Positions 55,716-56,861 of a DNA stretch of 64,000 nucleotides are shown in pieces (the first letter of the stretch is position 1; each line of letters opens with the position of its first letter). The stretch comes from Candidatus Iainarchaeum sp. (GTDB lineage: Archaea; Iainarchaeota; Iainarchaeia; Iainarchaeales; UBA10191). The position numbers and the translations under genes are program-made. The notes under the pieces were generated by a model. That model ran no database searches. It was not told the DNA's origin and saw nothing but the letters and a program-made list of their open reading frames with translations. The stretch lies in contig JAUSFL010000008.1 of assembly GCA_030649735.1 (NCBI GenBank), forward strand, positions 85,141 through 149,140. The letters are read 5' to 3'.

Positions 55716-56813
55716 GGAAGCCTCTGGCGAGATTTGAACTCGATTCGAGCGGAAGTCCGGCTTCAAAAAGACTATTTAAAGCAAAAAGCAAGAATAAGTA
55801 ATGCAGGATAGACTTGGTTTTGTTGATGCTTTTGTTAGGAAGCAGTTCTTTGAAGCTTTTAGAAGCGCACTTAATTCCAAAAACTGGCGGGAGCTGGCAA
55901 GCTCTTTCGGATTGCATCGGACATTATTCCAAAAGTACCAGTACGGGCAGCTTTTGCTTCCTGAAGAATTGTTTGAGAAAATGCTGTTTTCACTACCTGC
56001 CGAAAGGCAGGACTTTTTTACAGGTAAGTTTTTCAGGAAGGCTGGAAACTGGGGTGCAATAAGAGGTGGAAGAGTATTGTTTGAGAAATATCCTGAAGAG
56101 TTCAAAAAAAGAAGGGAAAACGGGTTGAAAAAGCTGAAAGAACTAGGAAATGCTGGCGGGAAAATTAAATTTAAGATTGACGAAAATATTCCCCTATCTG
56201 AAGAATTCTGTGAATTTGTTGGAGCTTTCATTGGAGATGGCTGGCTTGACTATTCAAACAGCAGTGTTGGAATTGTAGGAAATAGAAGTTTGGATTCTGA
56301 ATATCTTATACGATTGAAGAATAATGCCCAGTCAGTTTTTGGGTTAAATGGAAAGTTAAGCGAGAGAAAGGATTGTCTGGCAACTGTGCTGAGATTAAAC
56401 TCTAAAATGCTTTGTGAGCTTTTTGTCAATCGGTTTGGTTTTCCAAAGGGGGCAAAAACTCATTCTGTAAGAATTCCTGAAGAAATCCTGAATTCTGAAG
56501 AGCAATTCATTTTTGCAGTAATTAGGGGAATATTTGACACTGATGGTTGCGTGTTTTTAGACAAAAGAAAAATTTACAAAAAGCCTTACCCAAGAATTAG
56601 TTTGCAGATTGTAAGTAAAAATCTTGCAGAACAGCTATTTATGATTTTGTCAAAAGAATTTATTGTCTACAAAGGATTTAATGCAAGCCGGCATTCTCAG
56701 TATATTGAAATTTATGGGATTGAACAATTGCAAAAATGGATGCGTCTGATAGGATTCTCTAATGAAAGGAACTTGAGGAAAGTCAGGGAAGCCTGTGGCG
56801 AGACTTGAACTCG
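55716..56813. mobile_element. 1.1-kb LAGLIDADG cassette flanked by 27-bp direct repeats of the tRNA-Thr 3' end
   Basis: GGAAGCCTCTGGCGAGATTTGAACTCG (55716-55742) vs GGAAGCCTGTGGCGAGACTTGAACTCG (56787-56813), 25/27 identical. Confidence 0.85.
55801..56808 (+). CDS. Stand-alone LAGLIDADG endonuclease with N-terminal HTH
   Basis: EFCEFVGAFIGDGW and AVIRGIFDTDGC; last codons and stop lie antisense inside tRNA-Thr. Confidence 0.9.
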   Translation: MQDRLGFVDAFVRKQFFEAFRSALNSKNWRELASSFGLHRTLFQKYQYGQLLLPEELFEKMLFSLPAERQDFFTGKFFRKAGNWGAIRGGRVLFEKYPEEFKKRRENGLKKLKELGNAGGKIKFKIDENIPLSEEFCEFVGAFIGDGWLDYSNSSVGIVGNRSLDSEYLIRLKNNAQSVFGLNGKLSERKDCLATVLRLNSKMLCELFVNRFGFPKGAKTHSVRIPEEILNSEEQFIFAVIRGIFDTDGCVFLDKRKIYKKPYPRISLQIVSKNLAEQLFMILSKEFIVYKGFNASRHSQYIEIYGIEQLQKWMRLIGFSNERNLRKVREACGET

Positions 56814-56861
56814 CGACCTATTGATTACCAATCAATTGCGCTACCACTGCGCCACACAGGC
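56790..56861 (-). tRNA. tRNA-Thr(GGT)
   Basis: GCCTGTG/CACAGGC-T; ATTGA-TT GGT AA-TCAAT. Confidence 0.95.

Follow-up and report, generated by a model that had tools for sequence, protein, structure and literature searches.

In T-even phages, free-standing homing endonucleases are known that take adjacent genes with them. Here we describe a locus of an archaeal chromosome at which a free-standing gene of the LAGLIDADG type runs into the 3' end of a transfer RNA (tRNA) gene, tRNA-Thr(GGT). The locus comprises positions 55716 to 56861 of a stretch of 64,000 nucleotides (nt) from Candidatus Iainarchaeum sp. (contig JAUSFL010000008.1, positions 85,141 to 149,140); this entire stretch is referred to as the window, and coordinates given without a contig or locus name are those of the window. 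The host is a groundwater DPANN archaeon, whose genome assembly (G000) comprises 1.28 Mb in 51 contigs and is 92.7% complete. In our view the locus is probably a selfish cassette, in which the gene of a LAGLIDADG homing endonuclease travels together with tRNA-Thr(GGT) and replaces the resident tRNA by break repair.

The closest functional parallel appears to be SegB of phage T4. According to the accessible part of the published account, SegB is a free-standing GIY-YIG homing endonuclease encoded in the T4 tRNA gene cluster, its 27-bp recognition site includes the conserved T-psi-C stem-loop motif of tRNA genes, and it drives the inheritance of its own gene together with neighbouring tRNA genes (PMC2330249). 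Both systems have a free-standing endonuclease gene among tRNA genes. However, as described there, SegB is of the GIY-YIG type and acts in a phage during co-infection, whereas the window gene is of the LAGLIDADG type, resides in a cellular archaeal chromosome and encodes a protein whose cleavage activity is predicted. A truncated resident tRNA as flanking repeat, as seen in the window, is not described for SegB in this part of the account, and the window gene, unlike SegB as portrayed there, belongs to a diversified family with members tied to particular tRNAs. Within the portions of the literature that were accessible, no account of a cellular archaeal free-standing LAGLIDADG family linked to tRNA genes was found.

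Other systems resemble the locus in single features. The double-motif fold and the catalytic Asp residues of the window protein are common to I-Tsp061I, I-DmoI, the PI-SceI/VMA-type enzymes and PI-PfuI. Those archaeal intron and intein enzymes sit in rRNA introns or in inteins that are removed from the host product, whereas the window gene is free-standing, has a promoter-like box, encodes an additional domain at the N-terminus and adjoins a tRNA that is uninterrupted. Integrase-borne islands at tRNA genes, viruses or plasmids integrated there, and the integrase-less derivatives of all these resemble the window in that the 3' part of the tRNA is directly repeated at the two ends and a functional tRNA is restored at one of them. 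In contrast to such islands, the window unit consists of a single gene in about 1.1 kb with no recombinase found, the whole tRNA and its leader were replaced in the related genome G174, and many family members lie at the 5' side of a tRNA. Mobile endonuclease open reading frames (ORFs) of fungal mitochondria enter a gene at its 3' end and supply a substitute for that end. As in our reading of the window, the endonuclease gene there travels with a replacement of the target end and the displaced original end stays downstream, but the fungal targets are organellar protein-coding genes, whereas here an archaeal chromosomal tRNA gene is affected and apparently the whole tRNA travels. Finally, the bacterial transcription factor WhiA is derived from a LAGLIDADG protein, has lost the catalytic residues and carries a C-terminal helix-turn-helix (HTH) domain. 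The window protein likewise combines a LAGLIDADG scaffold with an HTH-type domain, but its extra domain is N-terminal and both Asp residues are kept, which sets it apart from a WhiA-like regulator.

Anatomy of the locus and the encoded protein

A 335-amino-acid (aa) ORF (55801-56808, plus strand), whose translation ends in ...REACGET, faces tRNA-Thr(GGT) on the minus strand (56790-56861; detected by ARAGORN and by Rfam with 74.6 bits), the sole GGT isoacceptor in the whole-genome ARAGORN list. Since the coordinates of both genes overlap by 19 nt in antisense orientation, the tRNA 3' end is complementary to the final 19 nt of the ORF, as the initial annotation of this DNA had claimed. The direct repeats of the tRNA-Thr end that it had reported were likewise recovered. 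They comprise 27 nt each (55716-55742 and 56787-56813), are identical at 25 of 27 positions, are spaced by 1071 nt, and take in the T arm on its 3' strand side, the 3' strand of the acceptor stem, the discriminator and three further nt. By a rough estimate, about 1e-6 matches of this quality are expected within 4 kb, and thus the repeat is not a product of chance. The proximal copy (56787-56813, minus strand) consists of the working tRNA's 3' end and 3 further nt, and its opposite strand encodes the last codons of the ORF. The distal copy (55716-55742, minus strand) is a displaced 3' fragment of a tRNA-Thr(GGT) corresponding to about positions 50-73 plus 3 nt. On the minus strand it is followed by TA and then by eight T (55706-55713), the presumed terminator of the old tRNA, in keeping with what is usually seen behind archaeal tRNA genes.

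Between the repeats, the 1.1-kb unit contains one ORF. An Rfam scan of 54000-60500 at E<=1 returned no group I or group II intron; apart from tRNAs and two sub-threshold matches over tRNA-His, nothing else was matched. As no intron family was detected and the ORF lies outside any longer frame, the LAGLIDADG gene is free-standing, and a reading of the locus as an intron or intein was rejected. No match to Phage_integrase (PF00589) was found on the 149-kb contig (C30) that carries the window, in a search that covered tyrosine recombinases only. These results agree with the earlier description of a unit devoid of intron, intein and recombinase.

The sole Pfam match of the encoded protein is LAGLIDADG_3 (PF14528; E 9e-9, residues 236-318). 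An AlphaFold2 model based on a 58-sequence alignment reached a pLDDT of 94.2, and residues from about 130 to 335 of this model matched solved LAGLIDADG enzymes in Foldseek (143 matches at E<=0.001, many of them with a probability of 1.00). Endonucleases of archaeal inteins and introns rank first, namely TliVMA (7qsu, E 2.7e-12) and I-Tsp061I (2dch, E 1.9e-11, TM 0.77 on the target), with PI-SceI and I-DmoI among the further ones. The predicted fold is the alpha-beta-beta-alpha-beta-beta-alpha double-domain fold of LAGLIDADG proteins, and two predicted LAGLIDADG helices each end in a putative catalytic acidic residue. Motif 1 (56215-56244, residues 139-148) has this Asp in G-D-G and motif 2 (56521-56550, residues 241-250) in T-D-G. 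The GDG of motif 1 and the [T/A/S]DG of motif 2 are both kept in 30 of 30 aligned free-standing homologs; in the 58-sequence alignment D146 is nearly invariant (at least 90%) and D248 is invariant. Residues 1-118 form a separate helical domain, which on its own was modelled with a pLDDT of 88.6. Residues 1-120 have no Pfam match, and the domain has no Foldseek match at E<=0.001; every match it has is weak, and each is to an XRE/Cro-type HTH protein (best E 0.19, probability 0.96). Of the HTH-LAGLIDADG architecture that was initially proposed, the second half is therefore borne out by Pfam, and an N-terminal HTH domain is plausible but not established.

Two orthologous loci were available for comparison, one in a genome of the same genus (G001), in which the gene is split over two contig ends (L019 and L046), and one on a metagenome contig (L056) with 70% identity. 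The ratio of nonsynonymous to synonymous substitution rates (dN/dS) is 0.165 against L056 (334 codons, dS 1.29) and 0.13 and 0.08 against the two G001 pieces, with dS between 1.2 and 1.3 across the comparisons; the adjacent gene for histidyl-tRNA synthetase (HisRS) has a dN/dS of 0.10. With dN/dS at 0.08-0.17, the ORF is thus held by purifying selection. The orthologous loci also bear on the question of whether the architecture could be a coincidence, or a mis-assembly at a repeated tRNA. The source is a metagenome-assembled genome (MAG), and the G001 gene is interrupted by contig ends. However, run X1, possibly the source sample itself, contains a Logan contig of 11148 nt that agrees with 54400-58300 throughout, and the same architecture is found in L056, G001 and dozens of other genomes, so that we regard an artefact as extremely improbable.

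The constraint on the protein, close to that on HisRS over a dS of more than 1, is also a point in favour of a different explanation, in which the host keeps an HTH-LAGLIDADG protein for a function linked to the tRNA gene, such as DNA binding, regulation or maintenance of the locus; the tRNA fragment would then be an old by-product or an operator, and the gene would now be immobile. The weak XRE-like signal of the N-terminal domain fits such a domesticated protein, as does the occurrence of WhiA among the fold matches (8dy9, E 3.4e-7) and the fact that one source labels a homolog WhiA. The conservation of both catalytic Asp residues in all 30 homologs argues against it, and so do several of the comparative results given below.

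Linkage of the gene family to tRNA genes

The host genome contains nine matches to the family in total. Four are closer, free-standing copies, namely the window gene and those on contigs C46, C9 (with one in-frame stop) and C50 (with two), and all four adjoin tRNAs; two distant matches (C3 and C39) lie on contigs without a tRNA, and three are inside long ORFs. The paralogs are found at C9:236-895 beside tRNA-Lys/Phe, at C50:20775-21476 beside tRNA-Arg(TCG) and at C46:41019-41705 beside tRNA-Arg(TCT), and no flanking tRNA fragments were detected at these three places. An ARAGORN prediction on contig C6 of a tRNA-His with a 900-nt intron was set aside as spurious.

To quantify this linkage in the phylum, the distance from the tblastn match to the nearest tRNA above the Rfam gathering threshold was taken for every fetched locus with a match that lies outside a long ORF and is not cut by a contig end before the gene. 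This excludes the two G001 halves (L019, L046), three matches in frames of 1279, 508 and 854 aa (L040, L042, L043) and L005-L008. A tRNA lies no more than 120 bp from the free-standing homolog in 48 of 55 loci (25 of 30 and 23 of 25 in the two sets), as compared to a background of 42 of 955 ORFs of at least 150 aa (4.4%) in G000. The initial annotation had named enrichment of homologs at tRNAs as a test of its proposal, and this enrichment is clearly present. Among intein-type relatives in viral contigs, none of 33 is near a tRNA and all 33 are inside ORFs of 532-1872 aa; the search of viral contigs for carriers yielded distant relatives of this type only. The seven loci that missed the distance limit are heterogeneous. 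At L017 the tRNA probably contains an intron of about 21 nt, at L074 it was detected by ARAGORN alone, at L078 the contig ends, at L032 and L033 tRNAs are found at 329 and 516 bp, and at L027 and L044 there is none.

The geometry of the 48 linked loci is not uniform. Gene and tRNA converge at the tRNA 3' end in 26, the gene lies upstream of the tRNA in 12 and the tRNA upstream of the gene in 10, and no divergent pair was found. In a maximum-likelihood tree, the protein clades track tRNA identity and geometry (support 100/98 for the convergent Thr-GGT clade, 98/94 for Thr-CGT, 100/97 for Arg-TCG and 100/100 for Lys), and this is also seen for a Val clade. In the 25 further close homologs, a tRNA-Thr (GGT, TGT or CGT) is touched in 24 according to ARAGORN and in 23 according to Rfam. 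Introns are predicted by ARAGORN in several of the linked tRNA-Thr genes; the comparison set had been gathered with an intron-less query. Within genus g58, related endonuclease genes separated by branch lengths of about 0.1-0.2 occur at tRNA-Thr(GGT) in two genomes (L065 of G107 and L066 of G106) and at tRNA-Thr(TGT) in a third (L067 of G105), which suggests a jump between isoacceptor genes. The occurrence of near-identical genes at different Thr isoacceptors within one genus speaks against an immobile, domesticated protein.

Evidence for gain and loss of the gene and for replacement of the tRNA

The gene is not fixed among relatives. A match at E<=1e-5 is present in 33 of 41 genomes (40 relatives and G000) and a close homolog at E<=1e-25 in 47 of 215 genomes of a phylum-wide sample. 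Within genera its distribution is patchy (3 of 6 genomes in g34, 1 of 7 in g28 and 2 of 7 in g54). An empty site, as had been anticipated for related genomes, was found in run X3, a groundwater metagenome of a different study. A contig of 1496 nt (record 19) aligns to 57937-56873 and to 55742-55391, skips 1130 nt including the ORF, and has 66 other letters at the joint of 55742 to 56873. The left edge of this joint is the exact inner end of the distal repeat. The 66 letters are about the size of the leader plus the 48-nt 5' part of the tRNA, a likeness in length only. The stretch absent from this contig includes tRNA-Thr(GGT) (56790-56861), which is thus probably part of the inserted cassette. 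Run X3 also contains the occupied form (record 21, aligning to 56631-56882 with 9 differences in 252); parts of the window that lack cover in contigs of runs X2 to X4 are uninformative.

Furthermore, decayed forms of the gene exist. In G002, a member of the same family, 23 C-terminal codons are left (61% identity, E 8.5e-6) and adjoin the tRNA downstream of HisRS, and in-frame stops are present in the C9 and C50 copies of G000 as well as in G023 and G007. The synteny with HisRS is common to loci with and without the gene. At one conserved site the gene is thus present in some genomes and absent from others, and it shows decay and loss, as in a homing cycle. For a domesticated protein, the patchy distribution within genera, the pseudogenes and the remnant, and the empty-site allele in a close relative are difficult to accommodate.

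The extent of the replacement could be followed in a same-genus pair of genomes, one without the gene (G030) and one with it (G174). The flanks of the two genomes share 84-85% identity (224 of 280 columns on the upstream side), while just 51 of the 72 aligned positions agree between the G030 tRNA and the tRNA beside the gene in G174, and the resemblance ends 16-27 nt before the 5' end of the tRNA. On the far side of the gene, G174 retains 35 nt that are identical at 35 of 35 positions to the G030 tRNA positions 41-72 plus TTT. The exchange in G174 thus included the leader and the 5' half of the tRNA, and the resident 5' part was not retained. A recombinase crossing over within the 3' half would have left the resident 5' half in place, and G174 does not look like the product of such a crossover; judged from the alignment, it looks like the copying of a foreign tRNA together with the gene, and a non-homologous join on the far side. 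The initial proposal of an element that brings its own replacement tRNA 3' end therefore holds as far as an integrase-free LAGLIDADG unit at a tRNA 3' end is concerned, but not in its restriction to the 3' end. In G174 a whole divergent tRNA with 16-27 nt of leader had arrived, and the distal repeat is the truncated resident tRNA. For the further suggestion of a regulator cassette mobilised in trans, no support was found. This whole-tRNA replacement is also hard to explain if the protein merely serves the host, and taken together we consider domestication unlikely.

In five within-genus comparisons of gene-less with gene-linked tRNAs, 51-58 of 72 positions are shared, with flanks of 71-85% identity, as compared to 67-72 of 72 in three comparisons of gene-less tRNAs across different families. 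The gene-less tRNA loci had been gathered by similarity to one such tRNA, and the within-genus pairs are the fairer test of divergence, though few. Consensus-type 3' fragments beyond the gene and outside any called tRNA were found at 7 of 22 Thr-GGT-type loci and at 2 of 31 gene-less loci; before removal of two cases, the counts were 8, including L017, where the piece belongs to its own tRNA, and 3 of 32, including L111, where the piece is the tRNA itself. Comparable fragments occur at Thr-CGT (L020, L087), Thr-TGT (L085) and Val-CAC loci (L038), the last one being identical at 27 of 27 positions and then followed by a different acceptor strand. All fragments extend toward the tRNA 3' end, and the longest begin at positions 39-41. 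Duplicated tRNA 3' ends at homologs, another expectation of the initial annotation, therefore recur in independent lineages.

Additional fragments were seen in other arrangements. Two gene-less loci have a further short piece of tRNA-Thr close to the intact tRNA. In one case this is a 3' piece of 19 nt located 135 nt downstream (L091:774-792, G133) and in the other a 5' piece of 18 nt located upstream (L097:1677-1694, G045), and both may be scars of past insertions. At L075 (G053), tRNA-Thr 3' fragments at 656-680 and 1415-1431, each preceded by an A-run, flank a 242-aa ORF upstream of the endonuclease gene and may point to two successive insertions. The ORFs between fragment and gene in L075 and L063 have no Pfam family.

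The tRNA fragments also raise the question of an integrase. Repeats of the tRNA 3' part that start at positions 39-56 and run to the 3' end resemble the known classes of integrase attachment sites, so that the repeats might be the attL and attR of a relic or minimal element inserted by a tyrosine recombinase, with the integrase lost or supplied in trans and the LAGLIDADG gene as cargo. Among five Phage_integrase matches in G000, two adjoin tRNA-Ile and tRNA-Gln, and thus integrases targeting tRNAs exist in this genome. However, no integrase was found on the contig or next to the homolog loci that were fetched, and in most loci no gene other than the LAGLIDADG gene separates tRNA and fragment. 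The fragment boundaries vary, at twelve loci the gene precedes the 5' end of the tRNA, and in G174 the 5' half and leader were exchanged as well. We therefore judge this explanation to be very unlikely. The two recombinase genes themselves lie at C37:38708-39202, beside tRNA-Ile(GAT) (C37:38139-38251), and at C44:51744-52214, with an in-frame TGA, beside tRNA-Gln (C44:51153-51227), and both loci are probably classical integrase-type integrated elements.

G001 and L056 share with the window one order of features, consisting of a thioredoxin-like gene, the tRNA fragment with its T-run, a TATA-like box, the ORF, the tRNA-Thr(GGT) overlapped in antisense, and HisRS. The acceptor pair of the L056 tRNA is the one implied by the displaced copy in the window, whereas the working tRNA of the window has a swapped yet paired, that is compensated, 5-68 pair. 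The displaced copy had initially been thought to have a mismatch that would break acceptor pairing. Since the L056 tRNA and the gene-less tRNAs share this state, the fragment instead preserves the older state and is not decayed there. Moreover, the window fragment agrees at 23 of 24 positions with the intact tRNA of the gene-less genome G030, and the L056 fragment is identical at 22 of 22 positions to the tRNA of G091.

Both orthologous tRNA-Thr(GGT) genes (L046:339-410 in G001 and L056:2248-2319) have G55 in the T loop in place of the near-universal U and A in place of G at D-loop position 18, and each scores 68.8 bits in Rfam; the two changes may represent covariation of a tertiary pair. Parallel T-loop changes in both G001 copies suggested concerted evolution of the two repeats, but L056, with the usual T loop in the fragment and the odd loop in the working tRNA, contradicts this as a general rule. 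A split or permuted tRNA or another structured RNA at 55716-55770 was also considered. The sequence can be drawn with an outer stem and a T-arm-like hairpin, but by eye the hairpin is lost in L056, and an imperfect inverted repeat around the fragment is likewise without conservation in L056.

The reading of the locus as a selfish cassette rests on its observed anatomy, on the fold and catalytic residues, on purifying selection and on the family-wide adjacency to tRNAs, as well as on the presence/absence polymorphism bounded by the repeat and the whole-tRNA replacement in the same-genus pair. From these observations we infer cleavage by the enzyme, its target site, the immunity of the cassette tRNA and the repair pathway. 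The enzyme would cut the conserved tRNA-Thr(GGT) allele of cassette-free genomes in its 3' half. Repair from a cassette-bearing genome would proceed via homology on the HisRS or upstream side, which could provide one-sided homology, and would copy in the divergent, presumably uncut tRNA allele of the cassette and then the endonuclease gene. The far end would be joined without homology, and the 3' part of the resident tRNA with its terminator would persist as the distal repeat. The gene could be removed again if the two repeats recombine or if an empty allele serves as the template for conversion. Repeated gain and loss of this kind would account for the patchy distribution, the pseudogenes and the remnants, and for fragments that are near-identical to the conserved tRNA despite a dS of more than 1.

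Several observations weigh against this model. The low dN/dS, the conserved HisRS synteny and a gene tree with a grouping mostly by host family are consistent with vertical inheritance over long times, and fit a long-resident, host-tolerated or host-useful protein equally well. The order of HisRS, tRNA and gene recurs in several families, which also speaks for domestication. The displaced fragment is identical at 21 of 27 positions between G000 and L056, above the expectation for a dead scar at a dS of more than 1, and this conservation beyond neutral expectation would suit a domesticated locus as well. As both junction types are intact after the duplication, self-immunity must rest on sequence differences, and the T arm of the working G000 tRNA is the same as in gene-less alleles. 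The X3 empty-site contig is just about 85-91% like the window. The uniformity of the gene-less tRNAs is inflated by the way in which they were gathered, and, since the genomes are incomplete MAGs that are related to each other, the counts are not independent. No nearby Rfam tRNA is found at the seven loci named above. Finally, one tight clade of proteins of about 210 aa adjoins five different tRNAs. Its members L024, L025, L030, L031 and L033 (from G004, G019, G030, G016 and G012) lie at tRNAs for Leu, Ala, Thr-TGT, Trp and Ile, in all of which ARAGORN predicts an intron, and the target logic of this clade may differ from that of the Thr clade.

A more far-reaching version of the cassette model can be put forward tentatively, although we regard it as doubtful as a whole. 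According to this version, tRNA genes throughout this DPANN phylum would be a battleground with free-standing LAGLIDADG endonucleases, each lineage of which would carry a cleavage-resistant tRNA allele and overwrite the conserved resident tRNA. Such an arms race would drive fast compensatory stem evolution in linked tRNAs, as in the higher divergence within genera given above. Small introns in linked tRNAs might be favoured as an immunity that breaks the target. The 3' fragment would not be a dead scar but a built-in repeat for precise loss and possibly also an operator, to which the enzyme would bind upstream of its own promoter.

If the selfish-cassette reading is true, there is a route to duplications of tRNA 3' ends that requires no recombinase, and repeats of tRNA 3' ends alone are therefore no proof of integrase activity. 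It would also imply a force able to swap an essential tRNA gene for a foreign allele, which would speed tRNA change in small-genome archaea, and would suggest that DNA exchange among these DPANN populations is frequent enough to sustain homing. Dozens of natural LAGLIDADG enzymes would then be at hand whose likely targets can be read from the adjacent tRNA and the displaced fragment, and these would be useful for studies of meganuclease specificity.

Neighbouring features and minor observations

Upstream of the endonuclease gene, the spacer between fragment and promoter (55743-55772) can be aligned by eye in the three orthologous loci and is probably the end of the inserted segment. It is followed by a TATA-like box (55773-55780, plus strand), located about 24 nt upstream of the ATG and present in L056 and G001 as well, as is the T-run after the fragment. 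The box suggests a putative promoter and a leaderless or short-leader mRNA; this role rests on general archaeal promoter geometry. On the other side, the tRNA leader (56862-56872, minus strand) forms the right end of the stretch that is absent or replaced in the empty-site contig, and the alignment resumes at 56873.

Throughout the order, tRNA-Thr(GGT) has the gene for HisRS (56893-58155, minus strand) as its conserved neighbour on the upstream side, and this synteny was seen in G001, L056, G002, G003, G023, G038, G040 and many of the loci L063-L112. An inverted repeat of 25 nt (56880-56904 and 58221-58245, 92% complementary) flanks the HisRS gene in both intergenic regions. The downstream neighbour of the original tRNA is the thioredoxin-like gene (54535-55608, minus strand), which is syntenic in G001 and L056. 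Its product has a His-rich N-terminus and, according to Pfam, a thioredoxin-like C-terminal part. The His/Glu-rich start with repeated HEHH units is followed by a predicted membrane segment and may be a metal-binding tail.

G000 also carries intron-bearing tRNAs. The gene for tRNA-Arg(GCG) (59628-59771, minus strand), immediately upstream of tRNA-Leu and tRNA-His, contains an intron of about 72-75 nt, and the host is thus an archaeon with long tRNA introns.

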